From NCBI GenBank assembly GCA_947301965.1, contig CAMYUM010000003.1, positions 30,127 through 94,126 on the forward strand: a stretch of 64,000 bases of DNA, given 5' to 3'. The position numbers and the translations under genes were made by a program. The notes below the pieces were generated by a model, which made no database searches, had not been told where the DNA came from, and saw nothing but the letters and a program-made list of their open reading frames with translations. The DNA comes from an uncultured Azospirillum sp. Its GTDB lineage: Bacteria; Pseudomonadota; Alphaproteobacteria; RF32; CAG-239. Shown here piece after piece: positions 2,978 to 19,945 of this stretch. The stretch's first letter is position 1; every line of letters starts with the position of its first letter.

Positions 2978-3904
2978 TTATTTTTTACCGATTAGGGCGT
3001 GGCGCTCCCAAAAGATGCCGTCAGAATAGCCCTGAATTTGTTTGTTTTTTTGCGCCAACTCAAGCCGTCTTTCAGCCCAAATGCAATAATTTGGGTTTTG
3101 TTCTATGCCGACGTAACGACGTCCGAGTTTGCGTGCGGTTACGGAAGTTGTACCCGAGCCTAAAAACGGGTCAAAAACAATATCGTTTTTGTTGGAACTG
3201 GCCAAGATTAATTTAGCAATCAATTTTTCGGGCTTTTGGGTAGGATGAGCGGTGTTTTCGGGCATCGACCAATAAGGAATGGAAATATCATCCCAAAAAT
3301 TAGAAGGGCAGGTATTGCGAAAACGACCTTCCGAAGTCTGTTCCCAGTCTTTGGGTTTGCCGTCCTGTTTGTAGGGAGCCAAAACTTTGCGCCGGACTTT
3401 TACGGCATCAAGATTGAAAGTGTATTGTTTGTCCATGGTGGCAAACCAAATATCTTCCATGCCGTTTTTCCAATTTTGGGTGGCTCCGCGGCCTTTTTCA
3501 CGTTGCCAGGTAATACGGTTTTGAATATTGAAATAACGTGCCAAAACCGGACCGATAACCAGGCTTGATTTCCAATCACAACAAACATAAATGGAGGCAT
3601 CGGGCTTTAACAAAGGAAGAGCTTTTTCTATCCATTCAACAGTATATTTCTCGTATTCGTCATCGGCCGTTTGAGTAAATTTATTGCCGTGAAAATCTTT
3701 GCTAAGGTTATAAGGAGGGTCAACAATCAGCAGGTCTACAAAATGTCGGGGAAGTCTGGGCATGATTTTGAGCGAATCTCCGACGATGGTTTTGTTGATG
3801 ATTGCTGATAGGGTAGTTTTGCGGCTGACTTTAATACATCGTTTGAGATAAGCCCTGCCTTCAAGAAGTCCGATATCTATGGTTTTGTTTTTTTCTGATT
3901 TCAT
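2978..3904 (-). CDS. ccrM: beta-class N6-adenine DNA methyltransferase, CcrM/HinfI-like (orphan, no adjacent REase)
   Basis: motif IV DPPY (LLIVDPPYNL) precedes motif I FDPFLGSGTT; AHPTQKPEKL matches CcrM AHPTQKPEAL; ORF trimmed to ATG at 3904 (MKSEKNKTIDIGLLEGRAYLKR). Confidence 0.75.
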   Translation of the reverse strand: MKSEKNKTIDIGLLEGRAYLKRCIKVSRKTTLSAIINKTIVGDSLKIMPRLPRHFVDLLIVDPPYNLSKDFHGNKFTQTADDEYEKYTVEWIEKALPLLKPDASIYVCCDWKSSLVIGPVLARYFNIQNRITWQREKGRGATQNWKNGMEDIWFATMDKQYTFNLDAVKVRRKVLAPYKQDGKPKDWEQTSEGRFRNTCPSNFWDDISIPYWSMPENTAHPTQKPEKLIAKLILASSNKNDIVFDPFLGSGTTSVTARKLGRRYVGIEQNPNYCIWAERRLELAQKNKQIQGYSDGIFWERHALIGKK

Positions 3905-4055
3905 TTTTGCCTCATTGTTGAATTGATAGCAAATAAAAGCACAAAAACCAAGATGTTTTATAGTTTTTGTTGATATCTGTTCTGTAAATGTTATAGACAT
4001 GATTATAAAAACGATGTATGAAAAATGTGAAAGTGTAAGGCGTTAGGAAAACAAT

Positions 4056-8403: not shown

Positions 8404-11400
8404 TTATTCAAATGCGTACCTCAGAGATAGCATTCCGGTGTGTTCTTGGTATCCGGAACGATAAGTTCCCATATATGATACGGCAGCAGAAATGTTTTCG
8501 GTCAGTGATTTTGCAAAGCTTAGGCTCGTTTCATAACCTAAACGACGCAATTTGTCGCCGTCGACAACATAACCGCTTCCATTGGACAGATATACATGAG
8601 TGTTGTTTTTGTCAGCCATAAAGTCATAGGTTAAACCGAGATAGGCTTCTGCCCGAATATCATATATTTCTCTGGCAAATCTTAAACTGATGACACCCCG
8701 CAAAATATCAGCATTGTCGGCAGATACTTTTTGAGCGGCGCTATCGGTATATCGGTCTCGTTTGATGTGATAGTAGCGGAAACCTGCTTCCGGTGTGAAA
8801 TATTCAAATTGATAACCGGCCATGCTTGCAACAGATGCAACCCATACGTCATATCTGGCGTTATAAGTATCATCAAGAGCATATTTCTTTTCTTTATAAT
8901 TCGATTGTCCGTAGGAAATAATTCCATTGATAAACTGTCGGCAAGGCTTGTATTCCCCATAAACAAAGCCGGTGACAGAATTTATGTCTATGTCTCGGGA
9001 CATAATATCAACGTCTGTTCTGTCAATTTGTAAACCGGCACCGAACTTGTAAGCGCGGTCTAATTCTTTTTCAAGACCAAATATAATGCCGCGGCTGTTG
9101 GAGTTTGAACCATCAATATTTTGGCGAGTACGCATCTTGGTATCGCTCAAATAAGGATTGCCCCAGGCGGTAACGTCGCTGAATTCGTCACTCGATAATA
9201 AACCGATTTGTTTGTTGCGGAGATATGAATCAACGGTCTTAAATAAAATGGAATTTTGTTCTGTTACGGTATTTTGGACAACCGCAGTTTCTGTCGGAGC
9301 AAGAGCCTTGAGGTTATGGACAAATCCGGCAGCATCATGTTGCGCCAAAGCGGCAAGTTTATCTGCAGCAATTGCACCGCTCGATCCTTCGGCAAAAGGA
9401 GCTTCATCTACCCATGCTCCGGCGGCATTTGCTACCCAAGATCTGGCTCCTTGCTCTTTAGCAACATCTGCAGCAGTTGATTTTTGAAGAATAGAGAAAA
9501 CACCAAACTTGCCTTTGGTCTTGATAAATTTGTACATATTGTTTTCGGCAACATCAACGCCTTCTTCGGTATGTGATACATCTTTATCAGCAAAATCACC
9601 GTTGTGGCTGCCGGCTTTAATTAAAGTTACTTCGCCATAATTGATGCCTTGAGCCAGAGTAGCTTTTAGTTTTGCTCCGCTGTTGATGGTCATGTCGTCA
9701 GTAATATTTAACAGGCCGTGCTGTCCATCTTCAAGACCATTAATTTTTAATGATAATGTGGATGAACTATCAAGTTTCATAGATTTGAGATTAACGGTGT
9801 TGGCGCCAATGTCTATCTTAGAGTTTTTGGCGTTTATTGTATCGGTATTATCCAAATAATTTGAACCGACTTTTAATGTAGAATTATTAACATTAATTTT
9901 ATTGCCGCTGATGGTGTTGGACAGTGTCCAGTTATTGTTGACGTTGATTACGCCGTTGTTATTTGTGCTTGAGATTGCATTTGTAAGAGCGGTGCCGGTT
10001 TTCAAATTTAAAGTGCCATTGTTTGTAATATCGCCGTTAACAATAGTGTTAACCAAGTTTATTGTTCCGTTGTTTACGACGGAATTGCCAATTGTAGAAT
10101 TCTTTGTGGTCAAATTACCGGTATTGGTAATGTTGGCGTTGGTAACAGAGCCGTTTAACTGATTTGTTCCGGAAGTGGTCATATTAAACGCGGTAGCGCC
10201 GGTAATTGTGCCGTTGATAATGCTGTCTTTAATGCCTACGGTTGCGCTGCCGTTAGTAACATTTGCTATGGTAGAAGCCCCGCTGACGGTTACGTTATCA
10301 AAGTTTAACGCAGTAGCACCTTCGCCAAGTTGGAAACCATGTCCGTTAAGGTTGAGAGTTTCTGCAGCACCGCCGGAGATACCTTTGATGTTTAATGTTC
10401 CTTTGGTGTCACCCAAATCGTCGCCCACATTATATGTCTTACCTTGTTGATTAGCCGTAAAGTTTTTGGTTGCATTGGTAGTGTCGTTGTTGACCAATTT
10501 CAGAGTATCACCAAGAGAGGTGTCGGTAGTCGTGCCACCATCACGTCTTGAAAAAGCAACCTCAATTGAGAGTTTGTCGTCGCTCAATCCTAATTTGCCA
10601 TAATCGGTGCTGGCGGTGGTGGTGTGTTCCTGATATACTTTGTTCCAAGCGGTATTTGCTTCGATAGTATCTGTTGAAGTGGTCGCTCCCGATGTTCCAA
10701 TAATGTATTCCGTTGAATTAAATGCTGCTTGTACGGCACTACTCAATGCCAGTTTGAGGGTGCTTGATGTCGCCGGATTTAAGACTTGTACGCTGAAATC
10801 ATCGGCGAGAGAAGTTGTTGACGGATCCAAGATATTAACGGAAGTCAGGGTGAGAGTTCCGGAAGAGGCATTGGTCAAATTAAACGTATCGACGGAAGAA
10901 CTTGATAGATTCATATCTATGGCCAAATTGCCGTTACCGTTAATAGCACCGATGTCATGAGATGTGATGGTTCCGTTTGAAACAGTGATTGTTCCACTAT
11001 TTGCGTTTAACGTTCCTGCAACTTCGGCTCCACTATTTAGTGTCAACGTACTATTAACATATGTTGTACCGGTTCCGGCAATAGTCTTTGCCAATACGCC
11101 GGATAAGTACAAATTACTGCTGTTGGTGATACTTGAATCGGCAATATTTGCCGCGGTTGTGGTTAAATTACCGGTATTGGTAATGTTGGCGTTGGTAACG
11201 GCTCCATTTAATTGGCTGGTTCCGGAAGTGGTCATATTAAACGCGGTATCGCCAGTGATTGTACCATTGAGAATACTGTTTGTAACACCGATTGTAGCAG
11301 AACCGTTAGTAACGGTAGCTATGGCAGAACTTGAATTGACGGTTACGTCATTAAAGTTTAATGCGGTAGCATCATCACCGACTTGAAAACCCTGATGTGA

Positions 11401-14400
11401 GGCAAGATTAAGTGTCTCAGCGTTGCCGCCAGATACACCGTTGATGTTAACAGTGCCGTTGGTTGCACCTAAATCATCACTGAGGTTATATGTCGCACCT
11501 TGTTGATTAGCAGTAAAGTTCTTGGTCGTATTAATTGTATCTTGGTTAACCAACTTTAAGGTATCACCCAAAGGACCATCGTCAACTCTGTCTCCTTGAA
11601 CGGTTGTTTCATGATCTTGTATATAACCAATGGAATCATTAGTAGTAGTTGTTGTTGTAAGACCTATAGTTCCGTAATGTTCTATGGTATCTTCTCTATG
11701 CCAACTAGAGAGTTGGTCGTTCCAATTTGTTGTTGCAGTTATTTGATCTGACCCTGTAACGGTTTGTGTAGTTTCAAATAACTTATGTATGTCGCTACCA
11801 CCTAGCTGTGATATAACCGCATCGGATAAAGCGAGCTGTAGGGCAGATCCGGAGGCATTATTTATTATTTGTACTTTATAATTGGCATCTACTCCGGTAA
11901 AGTCTCCGGTGAGGTTCAAATGTGATAGAGTTATGGTGCCGGCAGAATTGTTTGTGGCAGAAATGACATCAGCCTGTTTGCCTGAGGCGTCAAAATCTAT
12001 GGTATAATTTACATTGGCATTACTGTTAAGGTGATTTATTGCATATGTATCATATGAAGACGTGTTGCCGAGATTTATAGAACCGGCAGTAAAGTTAACG
12101 GTGTTGGCATTGGTAAATGTATCCGTGTTAAAAATTAATCCACCGTTACTATCGTTCATAGTTGCATTTGCCATGCCGACGGTTCCATTGATGGTATTAT
12201 TACCGCTTAATGTTAATCCGTAAGCGGCAGTACTTGCGGCAATATTACCATTGAGAATACTGTTTGTAACACCGATTGTAGCAGAACCGTTAGTAACGGT
12301 AGCTATGGCAGAACTTGAATTGACGGTTACGTCATTAAAGTTTAATGCGGTAGCATCATCACCGACTTGAAAACCCTGATGTGAGGCAAGATTAAGTGTC
12401 TCAGCGTTGCCGCCAGATACACCGTTGATGTTAACAGTGCCGTTGGTTGCACCTAAATCATCACTGAGGTTATATGTCGCACCTTGTTGATTAGCAGTAA
12501 AGTTCTTGGTCGTATTAATTGTATCTTGGTTAACCAACTTTAAGGTATCACCCATGTTCTCGTAGGAAGTATCACCGCCTTCTGTTCTGGTAACTGTAAT
12601 GCCAATAGAGTCATCTGTCGTGGTCTTTGTTTTCAGGCCTAGTTGTCCGTAGATTTCTTTATCGGAAATAACGGTTGTTTGATATATTTTGTCCCATGCT
12701 GTTGTGGTAGCAATTGCTTCGTCGGTTGTTGAACCTTCGATCGTTTCTAATAAATGTTCTGAGTCCAGGCCTGATGCAAGTTGCAATTTTAAAGTAGAAT
12801 CGGCATTTCCATTACTAATAATTTGTATTACGTCTTCAGTACTTAAATCTTCGTAATTGCCAATAATATTAATATTCCCAATGGTAATGGTTCCGTGAGA
12901 CTCTGCTGTTGTAGTAATCTTGTCTGCCGTTTTTTCGGTAGCATCAACGTCAATTTTATAGATTAAGCCATTTGAACCTAGCTCAACTGTGTTAATGGTG
13001 TTTGAATCAATATGATCATTAATTTGATTGATTTCTCCGCTATTGTTATCGGTTGTCAGCAAGGCAATTTGATTAAAATTTCCGTAGGTGATGTCGCCAT
13101 TTGTTTGAGTAATTTTACCTAAAATTAATTTAGCACCATTGTATAAATTTACGTTACTGTTAAGTATGTCGTTGTTAAATACATAAGTTCCGCCCTGAAT
13201 GCCGGTTTTGTTGTTAATGTTGATTGTACCTGAAGAATAAAGTCTGCCGCCAAATGAAATTTTTTGCCCCTCGGCAGCGTTTAGTGATATCGTACCGCCA
13301 TCATTGAATATATCACTATAATTTTCGCCGGCTTTGTTGTTATAAAAAACGATATCTCCATCATCACTTGTAGCATCTATAGATATTGTTCCTCGGTTGT
13401 ATATTGCTCCGCCTTTTCCCCCTGCAATATTGCCGAGAAAACTTCCACGGATGCTGCCATATGTGGCGTTACTACCTACATAGATGGCACCACCGGAGCC
13501 ACCGGCTTTGTTGTTAATAAAGTCTCCGATAATGTTATTTATTTTGCTGTTGGTGTTCGTATAGGTATATATTGCTCCGCCATCCTCACCGGCAGTGTTG
13601 GCAATAAAGTCACTGGTAATGGTACCAATAGTGGCACTGTTATGATAGATTGCTCCAGCTTTCCTGAGAGCACTATTACCAATAAAATCACCGGTGATAT
13701 AATTTCTATTTCCTTGTTTTGTATATATTGCACCACCACCATCAGTAGGTTTGGAGGGGGCATCAACTTGCCATAAACCTTCAGATCTGTTACCAATAAA
13801 ATTACCGCGTATTTCATTGATTGTCTGGTCCGTTCCAAGATTTAGCGCGCCGGCATTTTCCTTATATGCTACGTTGCCAATAAAATTGCCAATGACGGAA
13901 GTTATTTTAGTTTTACCACTAATTGCGACAGCTCCGCCTCCATATTTGTGTATGGTAGAATTGTTGATGAAATCACTTTGAATAGTGTCAGTATAGGTGT
14001 GTGCAGAAGTGCTTTTAAGAAATACTGCACCACCTTGACCTGCTTCTTCAATATTAAAAAATAATTTATTATTAACAGCAAGTGTTGCCTCTTCGTCTCC
14101 GCTTCCACTTTCATTTGCGTAACGTGTTTCTGTTTCGGTATAACCAGTGGGCAGAGTATATTGATATATATAGTCTTTGACTGGTGAATCGCCGATGACA
14201 TGTGGTATTTCGAACGAGATTGATCCGGTGGCTGTTGATGTTCCTTCATTCCAAGAAGGATCGGCAGTTCCTGATGTCCAAGATATATTATCAATATCTT
14301 TAAGATTGATGTTGTAATATTGTGTATTACCGCTTCCATCATTGACGGCAAAGTCGTAGCTTTCGGATGTTGCATTAGACCGTTCCCATGCGGTTTCTGC

Positions 14401-14514
14401 TGCCGCTGTTGTCGGTAAGAAAAAGACACCGCAAAGTAAACTGACTGTTGTAGTCAATCTGTGGATTCTTAAGTTTTTTATCGGTTTGTAAGTCAACATT
14501 AGTTTTTCCGTCAC
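8404..14514 (-). CDS. giant autotransporter (2036 aa) with polymorphic-membrane-protein (Pmp)-type GGAI/FxxN repeats, ~330-aa tandem passenger repeats and a C-terminal beta-barrel translocator
   Basis: N-terminal signal (LLCGVFFLPTTAAA); repeated GGAIY/GGAVF + FIGN/FINN motifs; C-terminal ~280 aa ending ...LSLRYAFE with aromatic terminus typical of autotransporter barrels. Confidence 0.8.
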   Translation of the reverse strand: MTEKLMLTYKPIKNLRIHRLTTTVSLLCGVFFLPTTAAAETAWERSNATSESYDFAVNDGSGNTQYYNINLKDIDNISWTSGTADPSWNEGTSTATGSISFEIPHVIGDSPVKDYIYQYTLPTGYTETETRYANESGSGDEEATLAVNNKLFFNIEEAGQGGAVFLKSTSAHTYTDTIQSDFINNSTIHKYGGGAVAISGKTKITSVIGNFIGNVAYKENAGALNLGTDQTINEIRGNFIGNRSEGLWQVDAPSKPTDGGGAIYTKQGNRNYITGDFIGNSALRKAGAIYHNSATIGTITSDFIANTAGEDGGAIYTYTNTNSKINNIIGDFINNKAGGSGGAIYVGSNATYGSIRGSFLGNIAGGKGGAIYNRGTISIDATSDDGDIVFYNNKAGENYSDIFNDGGTISLNAAEGQKISFGGRLYSSGTININNKTGIQGGTYVFNNDILNSNVNLYNGAKLILGKITQTNGDITYGNFNQIALLTTDNNSGEINQINDHIDSNTINTVELGSNGLIYKIDVDATEKTADKITTTAESHGTITIGNINIIGNYEDLSTEDVIQIISNGNADSTLKLQLASGLDSEHLLETIEGSTTDEAIATTTAWDKIYQTTVISDKEIYGQLGLKTKTTTDDSIGITVTRTEGGDTSYENMGDTLKLVNQDTINTTKNFTANQQGATYNLSDDLGATNGTVNINGVSGGNAETLNLASHQGFQVGDDATALNFNDVTVNSSSAIATVTNGSATIGVTNSILNGNIAASTAAYGLTLSGNNTINGTVGMANATMNDSNGGLIFNTDTFTNANTVNFTAGSINLGNTSSYDTYAINHLNSNANVNYTIDFDASGKQADVISATNNSAGTITLSHLNLTGDFTGVDANYKVQIINNASGSALQLALSDAVISQLGGSDIHKLFETTQTVTGSDQITATTNWNDQLSSWHREDTIEHYGTIGLTTTTTTNDSIGYIQDHETTVQGDRVDDGPLGDTLKLVNQDTINTTKNFTANQQGATYNLSDDLGATNGTVNINGVSGGNAETLNLASHQGFQVGDDATALNFNDVTVNSSSAIATVTNGSATIGVTNSILNGTITGDTAFNMTTSGTSQLNGAVTNANITNTGNLTTTAANIADSSITNSSNLYLSGVLAKTIAGTGTTYVNSTLTLNSGAEVAGTLNANSGTITVSNGTITSHDIGAINGNGNLAIDMNLSSSSVDTFNLTNASSGTLTLTSVNILDPSTTSLADDFSVQVLNPATSSTLKLALSSAVQAAFNSTEYIIGTSGATTSTDTIEANTAWNKVYQEHTTTASTDYGKLGLSDDKLSIEVAFSRRDGGTTTDTSLGDTLKLVNNDTTNATKNFTANQQGKTYNVGDDLGDTKGTLNIKGISGGAAETLNLNGHGFQLGEGATALNFDNVTVSGASTIANVTNGSATVGIKDSIINGTITGATAFNMTTSGTNQLNGSVTNANITNTGNLTTKNSTIGNSVVNNGTINLVNTIVNGDITNNGTLNLKTGTALTNAISSTNNNGVINVNNNWTLSNTISGNKINVNNSTLKVGSNYLDNTDTINAKNSKIDIGANTVNLKSMKLDSSSTLSLKINGLEDGQHGLLNITDDMTINSGAKLKATLAQGINYGEVTLIKAGSHNGDFADKDVSHTEEGVDVAENNMYKFIKTKGKFGVFSILQKSTAADVAKEQGARSWVANAAGAWVDEAPFAEGSSGAIAADKLAALAQHDAAGFVHNLKALAPTETAVVQNTVTEQNSILFKTVDSYLRNKQIGLLSSDEFSDVTAWGNPYLSDTKMRTRQNIDGSNSNSRGIIFGLEKELDRAYKFGAGLQIDRTDVDIMSRDIDINSVTGFVYGEYKPCRQFINGIISYGQSNYKEKKYALDDTYNARYDVWVASVASMAGYQFEYFTPEAGFRYYHIKRDRYTDSAAQKVSADNADILRGVISLRFAREIYDIRAEAYLGLTYDFMADKNNTHVYLSNGSGYVVDGDKLRRLGYETSLSFAKSLTENISAAVSYMGTYRSGYQEHTGMLSLRYAFE
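11264..11570. repeat. 307-bp segment identical to 12248-12554 (intragenic tandem repeat unit, period ~984 bp)
   Basis: read directly: identical string ccattgagaatactgtttgtaacaccgattg...ggtatcaccca at both positions. Confidence 0.85.
12248..12554. repeat. second copy of the identical 307-bp segment; a diverged third unit lies at ~10120-10520
   Basis: as above; encodes duplicated DTLKLVNQDTINTTKNFTANQQGATYNLSDD... block. Confidence 0.85.
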
Positions 14515-14604: not shown

Positions 14605-16893
14605 TTATCGTCCGTTGTTTTGGTTTTTGCTTAGTGGCAAAATAGTCTTATTGTCTCTAAGCTGTTGCTCGTCAGGTATGCTGGCAATAAGATTATTGGT
14701 TTTATAAAGCCATTGCTTGAAAGCAGGTATGTTCTCTCGGGGCAAAACATATTGCTTACTTGCGCCAAAGTAAGATAAAATCAAAATTTTTTGGTCTTTT
14801 TGCTTTTCAAGTGTCTGCCAAAGCTGTGATTTTAGGCCGTGATCTGCTACGAAGAAGCTACCATCACCGCGTTTAAGTTTCCACTGGTATATAAATTGTG
14901 CCTTAATGGTGTCTGTCTGTTCAATTTGTCTTCCTTGAACACACTGTTTCTTGGGCCTTGATGGCTTGTCAGCTGTTGTTTTAGGAGCTTTTGTCTTACG
15001 AGGTATGCTCTCACCTTTTTGATAGACTGTAAAACCACCAATTTGATAAAGTTTTTGCTTGAAAGCGGGTATGTTTTCTTTAGGCAGAACAAAAGCGTAT
15101 TGAACCTGAACCAAAAGACCATTGTTTTCTTGTTTTTTGATGGTGTTCCAGAGTTGAGATTTTTGTTTGTAAGAGAGTTTTTTCCCATCGCTTGTGAACA
15201 AACGCCATCCGGCACAAAAGGAAGTTTGTGTAATATCAGTTTCAGTCCTCTGGCGCACATGGGGAGCAGGTTTTTTAGGGAATTTTGTTTTTGAGGCAAT
15301 GATGCCTTTTTCCGTTAAAAGCCATCGTTCAAGTGCAGGAATGTTTTCTTCGGGTAAAACATAAGTTCGGTTATTGCCACTAAAAGCATAAATGAAAAAT
15401 TTGTTACGATTTAAAGATTTAAATTCCTTAAAAAGTGCAGATTTTGCTTTTGTACCCTTAATGGATTGTCCGTCAAGCCCATTTAGGTGCCAGTAGCGGA
15501 ATTGTGTTGTTGAAAGGTCGGTTTCAAGCTTTTGGCGTAATGATAGGGTGTCGTTGAGGATTTTTGTCTCTGATGCAATGATGCCCTTTGCTGTAAGAAG
15601 CCATTGCTGGAAGGCGGGTATATTTTCTTGTGGCAAGACATATTGTTTGTAAGTTTTAGATTTGCCGTGTTTAACTGGGATGAAGAGGTTTTGTTGGTTT
15701 AATAGGCATTCTTCAAAAAGTAAGGATTTGGTTTTATGATTCCAGATAGGGTCATTATTTTTATCTCTTACAAACCAAGATCTGCAAAAGTTGTTCTTAG
15801 TTAAATCAGTTTTAAGCAATTGTCTTAAGGGTTCCAGGGGTTTCTGAGCAATTAACCCTTTTTGTTTGATAAGCCATTGCTGAAAAGCGGGTATATTTTC
15901 TTGAGGTAAAACAATAACAGGATGTGCTGAAGAAACACAGACAAATAGATTTGGATTTTTGGATTTAACTTCTTCAAAGAGTGCGATTTTAGTTTCGTAG
16001 TTTAGGACTTTGCCTTTTTCAGACATTATCAGCCAAGAGGTAGAAAATTGTGATTTGGTGATATCGGTATTAAGTTTTGCTCTAACGGATTTTAGAGGCT
16101 CTTGAGCTATAATATGTTTTTTTTGCAAAAGCCAATCCTTAAAGAAATGAATGTTCTCCTGAGGTAAAATAAAAGATGTTTTTCCATGTGACGGAACCAT
16201 GATGAATAGGTCTTTGTGTTTTGAAGATTTAAACTCGTTCCAAAGAGAAGTTCTGATTGGTCCTGGCACAGATTTGCCATTTTCGTTAGTTAGAATCCAA
16301 TGAGTATAAAACTGCAGATTGGTCAAATCAGTTTCAAGCACTTTTCGTTGAGATTTTCTTGTTTTTGAAGCTGTAATGCCTTTTTCTTCAATAAGCCATT
16401 GTTGAAATGCAGAGATGTTTTCCTGTGGTAAGGCGAGGGCGGAAAATCCGGTAGTTGAAGCGGTGACGAAAAGTTCTTGATGTGAATTTCGAAAAGTGTT
16501 CCATAGATTGATTCGATCTTGAATGGTGGGGGCTTTGCCGTTTTTGTCTCTTAAATGCCAAGAATGCACAAAATTGCTTATTAAAAGATCCGTATCGAGC
16601 TTGGGTCTTTGTGACTTGGCCAAAATAAGGCCTTTTTCTGCCCAAAGGCGTTTTTTAAAAGCAGGAATGTTTTCTTCGGGTAAAACGTGAATGAAGTGAT
16701 ATTTTGCTGAAAGCTGAATAAAGAGTTCGGGGGCAAATAACACAAGTTCATCCCAAATCTTTAGTTTTTGTTTTCGGTCAATAGCTTTGCCGTTTTGGTC
16801 CTTCAGACCGCATGCTTTGAAGAACTTGTTTCGGGTTAAATCGGTATCAAGTTTGGTGCGTTCATTTTGAGTAAAAGGAGATGTCTCTTCCAT
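14605..16893 (-). CDS. tandem-repeat protein (762 aa; ~8 units of ~88 aa with VLPQENIPAFQQWL...KGIIA and KLxTDLTxxxF..W motifs); function unknown
   Basis: self-similarity obvious in the translation; no signal peptide; Lys-rich. Confidence 0.75.
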   Translation of the reverse strand: MEETSPFTQNERTKLDTDLTRNKFFKACGLKDQNGKAIDRKQKLKIWDELVLFAPELFIQLSAKYHFIHVLPEENIPAFKKRLWAEKGLILAKSQRPKLDTDLLISNFVHSWHLRDKNGKAPTIQDRINLWNTFRNSHQELFVTASTTGFSALALPQENISAFQQWLIEEKGITASKTRKSQRKVLETDLTNLQFYTHWILTNENGKSVPGPIRTSLWNEFKSSKHKDLFIMVPSHGKTSFILPQENIHFFKDWLLQKKHIIAQEPLKSVRAKLNTDITKSQFSTSWLIMSEKGKVLNYETKIALFEEVKSKNPNLFVCVSSAHPVIVLPQENIPAFQQWLIKQKGLIAQKPLEPLRQLLKTDLTKNNFCRSWFVRDKNNDPIWNHKTKSLLFEECLLNQQNLFIPVKHGKSKTYKQYVLPQENIPAFQQWLLTAKGIIASETKILNDTLSLRQKLETDLSTTQFRYWHLNGLDGQSIKGTKAKSALFKEFKSLNRNKFFIYAFSGNNRTYVLPEENIPALERWLLTEKGIIASKTKFPKKPAPHVRQRTETDITQTSFCAGWRLFTSDGKKLSYKQKSQLWNTIKKQENNGLLVQVQYAFVLPKENIPAFKQKLYQIGGFTVYQKGESIPRKTKAPKTTADKPSRPKKQCVQGRQIEQTDTIKAQFIYQWKLKRGDGSFFVADHGLKSQLWQTLEKQKDQKILILSYFGASKQYVLPRENIPAFKQWLYKTNNLIASIPDEQQLRDNKTILPLSKNQNNGR

Positions 16894-17063
16894 TAAATCA
16901 ATCCTTATAAGGAGTCAATCTAATTGCCGGGTATAACAGATTTGGGCGGAAAAGTCAATGAAGTTTTGTCCAATATGTCCATTCTAAAAAATGTAAGAGT
17001 TTTTAGGAGTTGCGGACTGTTTTTACATAAATTTAATATATTTTTTTGCTGTTTTGTGTTATC

Positions 17064-18353
17064 ATGGACAAAGATAGGGTGATGGAGACTGCTATGGCTG
17101 AAGATGAGGTAAATGAAGATAAAATCAACACTGAGGGATATAAGCGAGATGCGCAATATCAGGTTGATACCCTTAAAGGTGAATTGTTTAGTGCGGGTGG
17201 TTTTAACCTGACGACAAATGCGTTGACTCTCAATTATTCCGGAGATGACTGGTTTGGAACGGCTTGGGCAGAGCATTATACAACTCTGATCCATGAGCTT
17301 CATCATCATGATAATGCATGGGGGGGAATGTATACATATCCGGTAAGCGCCGAGCAGGCCTATAAAATAAATATGCATGATGAGATTTCGGCCAACCTGG
17401 CAGAGTTGGTTGCGATGCGTGAAGAATATTTGAAAAGCGGAGATATTTCGGTTTTTGATGAAAAGGGCAGTAAGTTTGATTTTTATAAAGAGGCGATTGA
17501 AAATGGCAAAATAGAAGTAAACAGCCAAAATGTTTCTAAATTTAATGATGAAATGGGTTTTATGGCTAACGGAGTCCGCGATATGTGGGAACGTGATCGT
17601 GCAGAAAGTTATATTAAACAAAATTCGAGTAACGCAAAACTTTTTTATGATAAGAGTGGAAAATATGGTCGATATTATGATGAAAATTATCAACGGGCGG
17701 TCAAAAAAGCCTATGATATCGGTGGTATCAATTTCAGTGACTACATGGACAGAGATGTCAATATTCCCGAAAAAGGACGGGAGGCGCTTGATGCAATAAA
17801 GTCGCGGAGCAACGAAATAAGTTTTGACAATAATGTTAAAAATGAACCGATTAACAGCCTTCCGCCGCGCGAGCCGGGGTGGCGTGAGCATGAGGATAAG
17901 GACGGCAGTCGGTTTTCTCCGGTGCAAACAAAATCGATAGTTGATTTAAGAAAACCCGTAATTAATCGTCCGCGGGGCTATGTGGGAGCGGAACAGGGGC
18001 AGCAGGTTAGGTCACCTTCTGACCATCCGGAAGCAAATAGAAAAGTTTTAGTGGAAAAAATGCAATCTCAACCATCTGAAAGGACTGCAAATAATTTTGA
18101 AGAATTAAGAGCAAGATTTAGTGCGGATCATGAGCGTTTGCAACAAGTGCGTGAAAAGTTGGGAAATGGACATGAAGAATTATCCTCGGAATCAAAACTT
18201 TCGGAACATAATCAGGCATCGGGAAAAAGTCTTGCCGAGATAATAAGAGAAAAAAGATTTGAATCGGCAACTCCAAGCCGTCCGGCAAATACACAGCCGT
18301 TTTCCAGAGAAGCAATGCAACGAGCTATGTCAGACCGGCAATCCGGCAGATGA
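17064..18353 (+). CDS. HExxH-motif protein (putative zincin-like metalloprotease fold) with long low-complexity C-terminal tail
   Basis: TLIHELHHHDNAWGG motif; the opposite-strand ORF 16920..17927 has I/F-rich antisense composition; start may be 17064, 17082 or 17095 (GGAGA RBS before 17095). Confidence 0.6.
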   Translation: MDKDRVMETAMAEDEVNEDKINTEGYKRDAQYQVDTLKGELFSAGGFNLTTNALTLNYSGDDWFGTAWAEHYTTLIHELHHHDNAWGGMYTYPVSAEQAYKINMHDEISANLAELVAMREEYLKSGDISVFDEKGSKFDFYKEAIENGKIEVNSQNVSKFNDEMGFMANGVRDMWERDRAESYIKQNSSNAKLFYDKSGKYGRYYDENYQRAVKKAYDIGGINFSDYMDRDVNIPEKGREALDAIKSRSNEISFDNNVKNEPINSLPPREPGWREHEDKDGSRFSPVQTKSIVDLRKPVINRPRGYVGAEQGQQVRSPSDHPEANRKVLVEKMQSQPSERTANNFEELRARFSADHERLQQVREKLGNGHEELSSESKLSEHNQASGKSLAEIIREKRFESATPSRPANTQPFSREAMQRAMSDRQSGR

Positions 18354-18394: not shown

Positions 18395-18661
18395 ATGAAA
18401 AAAGCTATATACCTGTTTTTGTTGTGTTTGTTATTGCCGGCGTGTCAGGAGCTTGACGGTTTGTTAAACACAAACAATTTTGTTGTTTCAGAAGCCGATG
18501 ACAATCGCATGGTGGTGTTGAACACCAATACGCGTGTTTATCACGACCCAAAATGTAAAATTGCAAAAAGTTGCTCTAAAAATTGTGTTGTAACGACAAA
18601 ATACGATGCAAAGTCAAAAGGAGCAACCGCCTGCCAAAAGTGTAACGGCGGTAATAAATAG
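18395..18661 (+). CDS. small Cys-rich lipoprotein (88 aa; lipobox LLPAC; YHDPKC...C..C zinc-ribbon-like motif)
   Basis: signal + lipobox; six Cys; GAAAGGTGG RBS. Confidence 0.6.
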   Translation: MKKAIYLFLLCLLLPACQELDGLLNTNNFVVSEADDNRMVVLNTNTRVYHDPKCKIAKSCSKNCVVTTKYDAKSKGATACQKCNGGNK

Positions 18662-18733: not shown

Positions 18734-19945
18734 CTAGTTTTTGGCAAAGAAGGTGATGTAGCCTGTAGCGGCTTTTCCGTTAATGGTCATCTGGATTTTG
18801 ACTTCGACGTTGTAGATGTCGTCTTCAACGCTGGTCCAAGTGGTTTTAATGACTCGGACACTGTTTTCATCAAACATCATCTTGTCGGTCAACGGCTCAT
18901 ATAATATGCCATTATCAAGGTACACGTTTTCACGCTTAAACGCTATTTCTGTGGTAAAAACACCAAGATCCAGCTCCAGAATATCGGTATGTAATGTCTT
19001 GAGCAGATATGGAGATCCGCTGGAGAGTTTTTCAATCGACTTGGCATCGATCTTGAGTGTTGCCTTTTTGAACTGGAGGTCTGCACGGTTTGCAATTTTT
19101 ACCACATTGCCATTTGCAGGATGATAGCTGGTGTTTTCGCCGTAAGCATAAGCCGTTTCGGTAAATGTTTCAGTGTCCTTGGTTCCATCGGAATATTCCG
19201 ATGTTACTTTTGCCTTAGAAACAAAACCGGCACGCCCATCCTGATTTTTCAGGGGCAGCAAGCTTTTCTCTACCATATTGCTGGACAGGATATACTTGCC
19301 GTTTATCTTTTCAATCGGGCGTGAAGCTACAACCTCGTTGGTTACAACATAAGTTTCGCGGTTAACCATCACTGTAATTGAGTGATTGTAGATTCTGCGA
19401 GCATAGGCTTTACCATCCTTTTCTACCGAACTGGCGCTTTTTACGGTCATATCATTGTTGACAATCTCGTCATAGCCATAGTATGGCATTGTTATCTTGG
19501 TATAGCCGTCATCGTATTCAGCCACCTGAAAGGTGAGAGGATACTCAAATTTGATTGTGCCATAATCAACCGTATATACCTGTACCGAATCGGTAGTTTT
19601 GATGTATGCGTCGTGTTTTGATGCAGTTGCTTTGCGAGATGTTTTGACTTTTGGTTCATAAGTTGCCCAGTTGGCAACAGTCACATTTTCTTTCACGTTT
19701 TTTAAGCTGTTGATCAGCTCAATCGAGAACTTACTATCGAATTCAGCTCTGGTCTGACCATATACCTGAATCCAGCTTTTGTAAGAGATAGTAGTACCGC
19801 CGTCATTGGCTTCAACAGTCACAGTGGCATCTCTGCCACTGTCGGCAACCTCGCTGGTTGCAATGTTAGAGATAAAGGTCTCCTTCTCGCATGCGGCGAG
19901 GACAATCACCGCCAAGGCAGCGATGATGGTGTTCACGTGTTTCAT
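18734..19945 (-). CDS. lipoprotein of unknown function (403 aa), GC-rich/foreign codon usage
   Basis: MKHVNTIIAALAVIVLAAC lipobox; hand-counted GC ~57% in a 60-nt sample vs ~32-38% in backbone samples. Confidence 0.7.
   Translation of the reverse strand: MKHVNTIIAALAVIVLAACEKETFISNIATSEVADSGRDATVTVEANDGGTTISYKSWIQVYGQTRAEFDSKFSIELINSLKNVKENVTVANWATYEPKVKTSRKATASKHDAYIKTTDSVQVYTVDYGTIKFEYPLTFQVAEYDDGYTKITMPYYGYDEIVNNDMTVKSASSVEKDGKAYARRIYNHSITVMVNRETYVVTNEVVASRPIEKINGKYILSSNMVEKSLLPLKNQDGRAGFVSKAKVTSEYSDGTKDTETFTETAYAYGENTSYHPANGNVVKIANRADLQFKKATLKIDAKSIEKLSSGSPYLLKTLHTDILELDLGVFTTEIAFKRENVYLDNGILYEPLTDKMMFDENSVRVIKTTWTSVEDDIYNVEVKIQMTINGKAATGYITFFAKN

Follow-up and report, generated by a model that had tools for sequence, protein, structure and literature searches.

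Small domains that bring proteins to nucleic acids are known in several architectures. Superfamily 2 (SF2) helicases carry accessory domains in single copy, such as the XPB damage-recognition, SauUSI target-recognition, UvsW N-terminal and RecQ winged-helix domains. Autonomous nucleic-acid-binding domains of 70–90 aa are joined in tandem by short linkers, with basic charge and no fixed geometry, in S1 (six S1/OB domains), SelB (four winged helices), multi-KH proteins and the TFIIIC/Rpc82 winged-helix arrays. MerR/Xis-type winged helix-turn-helix (HTH) domains (MerR N-termini, λ-type excisionases, RacA, pSK1 Par, TnrA/GlnR and small-terminase N-termini) are single and act as dimers or filaments, and TAL effector/BAT, PPR and PUF proteins are solenoids of near-identical, α-helical 33–36-aa repeats, variable in copy number and marked by one or two hypervariable code residues. 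Here we analyzed a gene encoding an array of ~85-aa units in a 64-kb stretch of contig CAMYUM010000003.1 from an uncultured Azospirillum sp., called the window below. Tandem small nucleic-acid-binding domains serving an SF2 helicase, which the array and its relatives would represent, are a kind of system already known, and the domain family itself is new. With slightly less than even confidence, we read the array as a cytoplasmic, multivalent binder of nucleic acid, probably DNA, that would derive from a helicase targeting module, judging from sequence comparisons and structure models.

The array gene is an intact open reading frame (ORF) of 762 aa plus stop with an ATG start. A unit hidden Markov model (HMM) searched against the six-frame translation of the window gave exactly eight matches (E 2e-27 to 7e-32), all within this gene, and no further copies in the rest of the 64 kb. 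The features of the gene are listed from its 5' side, all on the minus strand.
17035–17062, minus strand: sigma-70-like promoter match, weak (9/12), located between the divergent genes (consensus match only)
16902–16906, minus strand: Shine-Dalgarno-like AAGGA, 8 nt 5' of the ATG (read from the sequence)
14605–16893, minus strand: stand-alone array ORF with eight ~85-aa units (ORF and unit HMM)
16612–16869, minus strand: unit 1, aa 9–94 (unit HMM envelopes and six-frame matches)
16360–16617, minus strand: unit 2, aa 93–178 (unit HMM and six-frame matches)
16096–16356, minus strand: unit 3, aa 180–266 (unit HMM and six-frame matches)
15838–16092, minus strand: unit 4, aa 268–352, the unit modeled by AlphaFold2 (unit HMM)
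15565–15834, minus strand: unit 5, aa 354–443 (unit HMM and six-frame matches)
15286–15546, minus strand: unit 6, aa 450–536 (unit HMM and six-frame matches)
15016–15264, minus strand: unit 7, aa 544–626 (unit HMM and six-frame matches)
14941–15015, minus strand: Lys/Pro-rich 25-aa linker GESIPRKTKAPKTTADKPSRPKKQC between units 7 and 8 (sequence comparison)
14674–14940, minus strand: unit 8, aa 652–740 (unit HMM)
14608–14673, minus strand: C-terminal 22-aa tail DEQQLRDNKTILPLSKNQNNGR (read from sequences)

The ORF begins 8 aa ahead of unit 1, units 1–7 are contiguous with gaps of −2 to +7 aa, unit 8 is set apart by the linker, and the tail, which is polar with little net charge, closes the protein. 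The [LV]PxEN[IL] anchors of the units lie at aa 71, 155, 243, 329, 420, 513, 603 and 717, a spacing of 84–114 aa. Pairwise identity among the eight units is 27–49% at the amino acid level and 43–57% at the nucleotide level. Tandem Repeats Finder (TRF) detected no tandem repeat in the DNA corresponding to the array, and the sole trace of repetition at the DNA level within it is a 66-nt core coding VLPQENIPAFQQWL..KGI, present in seven copies (61–79%). The low identity of the units and the lack of a DNA tandem repeat indicate that the array is ancient and maintained by selection. The number of sigma-70-like matches in the divergent intergenic region was not above the shuffled expectation.

No named repeat family (ANK, TPR, Sel1, LRR, pentapeptide, TAL and the like) gave a significant profile match to the array protein. 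In Pfam, the whole protein returned only DUF1949 at 24.5 bits (best stretch 17 residues) and PAS_11 under the cut-off, and when 50 separate units were scanned, no family was matched by more than one unit and no HTH family appeared. The NCBIfam search gave only a spurious 20-aa stretch and PADLOC only an 18.6-bit stretch. Among PDB sequences, there was no significant match with phmmer, the narrow unit profile (A1), the broad profile (A6) or the profile of a different, 74-aa unit described below (A5). The matches to DUF1949, CBD_PlyG, DUF5710 and fosA13 were judged spurious, being scattered short matches to the strand-helix motif VLPxENIxxFxxWL. BstA_C was likewise rejected; it appeared as a faint precomputed match and a weak PADLOC BstA match in homologues, and was absent from the direct Pfam scan at E ≤ 10. 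The array units are an undescribed domain family that is absent from Pfam, NCBIfam and PADLOC and is without a solved relative. An earlier note on this DNA, made from the letters alone, had described about eight tandem units of an unrecognised repeat family, diverged at the DNA level and therefore old and selected. The HMM count, the nucleotide identities and the TRF result bear this out, and the profile searches of Pfam, NCBIfam, PADLOC and PDB gave no significant match to a characterised repeat family.

The family was then delimited by database searches. The whole window protein had only 13 matches among 5.8 billion clustered proteins, the broad profile had none in the same database, and the unit profile, run exhaustively with HMMER over 1.84 billion representatives, gave 29 matches, about 20 of them credible. 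Six weak matches, which are Flg_new, PKD or zf-BED repeat proteins according to Pfam (P0027–P0030, P0034 and P0037), and three similarly weak ones (P0035, P0036 and P0038) were discounted as repeat-summed noise. All traceable members come from uncultured rumen or gut Alphaproteobacteria, and the only names they bear in any source are "hypothetical protein" and "DEAD/DEAH box helicase family protein", from alphaproteobacterial metagenome-assembled genomes (MAGs). A genome-contig scan with the whole window protein gave no match, and the same scan with the VLPQENIP core found two MAGs in GTDB, an uncultured alphaproteobacterium from reindeer and rumen RUG803.

The family occurs in two forms. The stand-alone form has 5–8 units and comprises the window protein, P0002–P0008, P0010, P0012 and P0013. 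In the fused form, 1–11 units always begin at about aa 480–490, behind a ResIII/SWI2_SNF2/Helicase_C core. The majority of the credible matches are helicases with 4–11 units, and further members of the helicase clade carry 1–3. The window protein itself matched P0009 and P0011 (E 5e-120 and 3e-68), in which a DEAD/ResIII/SWI2_SNF2/Helicase_C core is followed by six or four units. The unit profile found 4–11 units in P0015–P0019, P0021, P0025, P0031 and P0033, and an hhalign comparison of window-type units with the most divergent ones (P0021, P0025, P0031 and P0033) gave a probability of 97.5% and an E-value of 7e-12. By these profile comparisons, the window units are significantly similar to the units behind the helicase core of an XPB/SauUSI-like SF2 clade.

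Motifs I, II, III and VI of the fused helicases are intact as read from the sequence (GxGKT, DEAH, TATP and QxxGRxxR). The closest solved sequence to the helicase core is 7clg (E 3e-11), which is SauUSI (PMC7913695); XPB/Rad25 and a type I R subunit come next. The core matches ResIII and SWI2_SNF2 at 1e-21 to 1e-24, compared with 1e-8 to 1e-10 for DEAD. Against NCBIfam and PADLOC, it gave only sub-threshold matches to XPB, RadD, EcoAI, PbeA and type IV REase (in PADLOC, weak core matches to PbeA and mREase_IV). The next helicase relatives are about 526 aa long and 23–25% identical, and their few source names point to Firmicutes and phages. By sequence, the array-bearing helicases are a distinct clade of DNA-type SF2 motors. 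Like the accessory domains of other SF2 enzymes, the units adjoin a ResIII/Helicase_C motor, one most closely related among solved sequences to SauUSI and XPB, and by analogy their position beside the motor suggests a substrate-targeting role. However, those accessory domains are single-copy and of other families, whereas the present module reaches 11 copies and also occurs without a motor. It also differs from the S1, SelB and KH arrays, which it resembles in layout, in belonging to a different family outside Pfam and in being distributed among a few uncultured alphaproteobacterial lineages.

Several further features of the helicase-bearing members were observed. The sister helicases P0062, P0063 and P0064, whose cores are 48–49% identical, have 2–4 copies of a different 74-aa tandem unit in the corresponding place, from aa ~478 to the end: TSEWLT..EL.GKYIVG..KI...L.QYADKMPNDIQVKRSG..TALCLRRGAIDEFCKLSGL. 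In the hhalign register, this unit aligns with the strand-strand-helix part of the window unit, not significantly, and homology to the array family is not claimed (probability <5%). A conserved helical C-terminal segment of about 55 aa (DKLHELQEKA..P.E..KY...A.K.F..LNP) ends helicase-fused and some stand-alone arrays (P0009–P0013, P0021, P0024, P0025, P0044, P0049, P0051 and P0055) and is absent from the window protein. It contains a C..C pair in most helicase-fused members and in P0013, and is weakly DUF2786-like (E 0.012 in two isolated tails, 0.089 in full-length P0010). One metagenomic contig (L001) holds a pair of paralogous genes for helicase-array proteins of 878 and 1051 aa (161–2797 and 10001–13156), about 7 kb apart, with sppA, gatCAB and a Zip transporter gene between them.

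The fold of a single unit was predicted with AlphaFold2 from the 50-unit alignment (A1). The model of unit 4 reached a predicted local distance difference test (pLDDT) score of 93.8 and a predicted template modeling (pTM) score of 0.81, and shows one or more short strands, helix 13–19, strand 21–24, helix 32–45, strands 51–54 and 59–62, helix 64–78 and strand 80–83, with the hairpin turn after strand 21–24 falling at the conserved N/D-G-K. The modeled topology is helix, β-hairpin, helix, β-hairpin ("wing"), helix, strand. In a four-unit model, based on a shallow alignment of 7–10 rows, every unit was folded (pLDDT 83.4) and the pTM was 0.35, which indicates independent domains whose mutual arrangement is not confidently fixed. 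Foldseek against PDB gave no significant match (best E 0.086, template modeling score ≤ 0.43); the top matches were winged-helix proteins, the best being the ribosomal proteins eS10 and eS25. In one comparison, the only fold neighbours were winged-HTH DNA binders, a weak fold match. Foldseek against the viral structures of BFVD gave no match.

The unit is possibly winged-helix-like, except that in the model a β-hairpin comes between the first and second "HTH" helices; this is a resemblance that falls short of establishing membership. The MerR/Xis-type domains share the order of helix, helix, β-hairpin wing and helix seen in the model, and the array units conserve a basic residue (K/R35) where the helix corresponding to the recognition helix begins. 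The array unit nevertheless differs from them in lacking detectable sequence or profile similarity and a significant Foldseek match, in having the β-hairpin (aa 20–31) between the "HTH" helices and an extra C-terminal strand, and in occurring as 1–11 tandem copies, whereas MerR/Xis domains are single.

Conservation within the unit was compared across the family. The conserved positions are mainly hydrophobic core residues (F16, aromatic 20, L22, L30, L38, W/F39, V53, V61, L/I62, aromatic 73 and L74), and few polar ones are kept (D10, the N/D26-G27-K28 turn, K/R35 at the N-terminus of helix 2, and G79). Positions 6, 28, 35, 52 and 54 are recurrently basic, the last two lying on the "wing" strand, and the ExN of the LPQENIP motif is subfamily-specific. 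Unit 8 is the best conserved unit, with 50–54% identity to the last unit of the orthologues, and these have a K-rich linker of 39–41 aa at the corresponding place. The tail DEQQLRDNKTILPLSKNQNNGR contains a short motif, [KT]x[IV]L[PS][LF]x[KT][NK]Q, common to the orthologues P0002–P0008. The C-terminal peptide of the stand-alone 8- and 7-unit proteins reads KTILPL in the window, KTILSF in P0002–P0006, NILPL in P0007 and AVLSL in P0008. Hexapeptides that bind the β-clamp, such as QLSLPL of Hda, usually contain Gln; a likeness of the C-terminal peptide to them, loose and without this Gln, is speculative.

The orthologous genes of loci L004 and L005, whose products are 85% identical, have a ratio of nonsynonymous to synonymous substitution (dN/dS) of 0.33; by this comparison, the array orthologues evolve under purifying selection. 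Three near-identical cluster members of 762 aa are present in JGI/IMG, ENA, NCBI and Logan records, so the unit number looks stable within the species and the gene is not in decay. How many units there are, and in what order, varies between sub-lineages; for instance, unit 2 of the window is closest to unit 1 of P0002 and P0007.

The array protein contains 11.8% Lys and 2.6% Trp and has a net charge of +52 with an isoelectric point (pI) of 9.9. The stand-alone 8-unit proteins range from +48 to +52 (pI 9.7–10), the arrays of the other analyzed proteins, either helicase-fused or stand-alone with the helical tail, have a pI of 8.3–9.6, and the helicase cores measured have a pI of 5.0–5.8. There is no signal peptide or transmembrane segment in the array protein (N-terminus MEETSPFTQNERTK; maximum 19-aa Kyte-Doolittle hydropathy 1.19), and the Pfam scan found no RTX or secretion-related domain in it. 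The description of the protein as Lys/Trp-rich without a signal peptide or membrane segment was thus correct.

The genomic surroundings of the related arrays were also compared. In the P0002–P0008 group, the order dnaE ... pgm, CckA-like hybrid kinase, hdaA, array, sufS is constant (L004, L005, L009 and L010), with the array 57–80 nt downstream of the 240-aa Hda/DnaA-like gene on the same strand. The positions of the paired genes are as follows.
L004, 9171–12280: Hda/DnaA-like gene and array, same strand
L005, 99–2755: Hda/DnaA-like gene and array, same strand
L009, 7199–10028: Hda/DnaA-like gene and array, same strand
L010, 1139–3968: Hda/DnaA-like gene and array, same strand
In the P0010/P0012 group, the array is always divergent from a 417–423-aa FtsK_SpoIIIE gene and lies ahead of accB/accC. 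In total, hdaA stands beside the array at four loci from two lineages and an FtsK-like gene at three loci. The fused helicases are surrounded by housekeeping genes, and nothing in the array neighbourhoods points to a mobile or defence island. A role as an anti-phage defence or polyvalent-protein module was not supported, as PADLOC gave only weak matches and the neighbourhoods consist of housekeeping genes. The earlier note had placed the gene at the opening of an accessory region; this was not supported, since its GC content at third codon positions (GC3) is 0.34, near that of six other window ORFs computed (0.36–0.42), its surroundings are chromosomal and its orthologues lie in core-gene neighbourhoods.

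Cytoplasmic binding of nucleic acid, most likely DNA, is suggested by four results together: the units are fused to a DNA-type motor, the fold neighbours are winged-helix-like, the stand-alone forms are extremely basic and have an H1-like Lys/Pro linker, and replication and segregation genes lie nearby. For the fused units, the most plausible role would be to hold the SF2 motor on its nucleic-acid substrate or direct it there. The window protein would descend from such a targeting array, without the motor, having become much more basic (+52) and gained the Lys/Pro-rich linker, and its binding would be multivalent and of low sequence specificity, most probably to DNA. Contact with DNA may run through the second helix and the wing; K/R35 is conserved, positions 52 and 54 are often basic and the net charge is +52. 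It may be a DNA-binding protein associated with the nucleoid or with replication, or it may work in trans on the helicase paralogues, as their partner or competitor.

Several results weigh against this proposal. The units of the helicase-fused P0009 and P0011 are near-neutral, which weakens the case for non-specific polyanion binding, and the orthologues are just 36–42% identical with fast-evolving surfaces. The window copy, which has lost the hdaA context, lies beside neither hdaA nor ftsK, and the neighbourhoods differ between sub-lineages. A tblastn search of the 64-kb window with the helicase core gave no match (best E 1.3), so there is no helicase paralogue in this stretch, and hhalign of the A1 unit profile against CueR and λ Xis gave a probability below 1%. 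We kept our confidence to the level given above, since all of the binding is inferred and the fold resemblance is weak.

The units could instead be a protein-protein scaffold that recruits partners such as replisome or clamp components without binding nucleic acid. The confinement of conservation nearly entirely to the hydrophobic core with variable surfaces, the near-neutral units of P0009 and P0011, and the shared C-terminal peptide motif with hdaA adjacency in the orthologues would all suit this explanation. It is unlikely, however, given that polyanion binders typically have a charge and a linker like those of the stand-alone proteins (+48 to +52, Lys/Pro-rich), that the fold neighbours in one comparison are all DNA-binding domains, and that no partner gene is conserved across the sub-lineages.

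Binding to structured RNA (rRNA, tRNA or mRNA), as by the winged helices of SelB or the S1 domains, would imply that the fused enzyme unwinds or remodels RNA. Compatible with this are the strongly basic charge of the array and its make-up of independent domains, the Pfam DEAD and Helicase_C matches of the fused proteins and the ribosomal origin of the best, non-significant Foldseek matches. We regard RNA as a rather improbable target, since ResIII/SWI2_SNF2 match the motor far better than DEAD, its solved or curated relatives (SauUSI, XPB, RadD and type I R) are DNA enzymes, and the conserved neighbours are genes of DNA replication and segregation, not of ribosomes or RNA processing.

The array might also act with sequence specificity. 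Each of the ~85-aa modules would recognise a short feature in DNA or RNA, 1–11 modules would set the footprint, and the array would steer the SF2 motor to specific chromosomal sites, with the stand-alone arrays serving as motor-less binders or regulators of replication and segregation, maybe linked to HdaA or FtsK. We consider this version doubtful; if true, bacteria would have a targeting system of array type with no relation to TALE, PPR, PUF and zinc fingers. The earlier note had offered the array as either a secreted effector or a sequence-reading nucleic-acid binder, by analogy with TAL/BAT-type repeats. The nucleic-acid binder gains support from the SF2 fusion, the winged-HTH neighbours and the charge of +52. 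Sequence reading in the TALE sense does not, as a TALE-like code is unlikely because of the size, autonomy and divergence of the units: unlike the TAL/BAT, PPR and PUF repeats, they are 85-aa α/β domains that fold alone (pLDDT 93.8), are 27–49% identical, vary across the whole surface without hypervariable code positions on a conserved scaffold, and show no confidently fixed packing into one solenoid in the four-unit model (pTM 0.35).

The effector half of that proposal, a secreted or surface protein of a host-associated bacterium, is very unlikely. The organism comes from the gut or rumen, the array adjoins a 2036-aa autotransporter-like gene, and the protein is repeat-rich, lineage-specific and fast-evolving; nevertheless, it has no signal peptide, membrane segment or RTX or secretion motif in Pfam, homologous units are part of one polypeptide with a cytoplasmic ATP-dependent helicase, and the orthologues lie among housekeeping genes and not beside secretion systems, the autotransporter adjacency being unique to the window. 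A decaying remnant left after helicase loss, which the missing helicase part and the 36–42% orthologue identity might suggest, is hardly credible against an intact 762-aa ORF with a Shine-Dalgarno sequence, eight units at E < 1e-27 against the family profile that keep their core residues and are predicted to fold, a dN/dS of 0.33 with full-length near-identical members from several public sources and no pseudogene-like decay, and helicase-less arrays that persist with conserved synteny in at least three diverged sub-lineages.

The window is an ordinary stretch of chromosome carrying queA, kdsB, a CcrM-like methyltransferase, pgpA, two tRNAs, the autotransporter-like giant and the array, followed by the HExxH ORF, a Na/Ca exchanger, DUF2130, patatin, FadL, subtilase, dciA, dsbA, atp genes and ppdK. 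The methyltransferase is consistent with an alphaproteobacterial chromosome. Three lineage-specific ORFs without a significant family match adjoin the array. The divergent HExxH neighbour named in the earlier note is present, as HELHH; neither it nor the autotransporter is a conserved neighbour in any related locus, and a functional link between the array and the HExxH protein was rejected because the adjacency is not kept elsewhere. The following genes of the window were recorded.
2978–4000, minus strand: 340-aa N6-adenine DNA methyltransferase with sub-threshold CcrM similarity
8404–14514, minus strand: 2036-aa autotransporter-like ORF with a weak Chlam_PMP match, adjoining the array
17046–18353, plus strand: 435-aa protein with HELHH, divergent neighbour of the array
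18395–18661, plus strand: 88-aa lipoprotein-like ORF with a sub-threshold Ada_Zn_binding match
18734–19945, minus strand: 403-aa lipoprotein-like ORF
The autotransporter-like ORF contains a perfect internal duplication of 300 nt (11262–11561 and 12246–12545) and repeat blocks of ~1-kb period with 71–82% identity, which indicate recent intragenic duplication.

The narrow distribution of the array family limits its importance at present. If the binding proposed here is right, the family would provide a new accessory module for SF2 DNA helicases that is multiplied in tandem from 1 to 11 copies, has its place taken in sister helicases by another tandem unit, of 74 aa, and can be freed from the motor as a strongly basic protein on its own. 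The unit is a small, well-folding domain with testable binding rules, and it would make DNA transactions easier to study in the poorly known uncultured Alphaproteobacteria of the rumen and gut.

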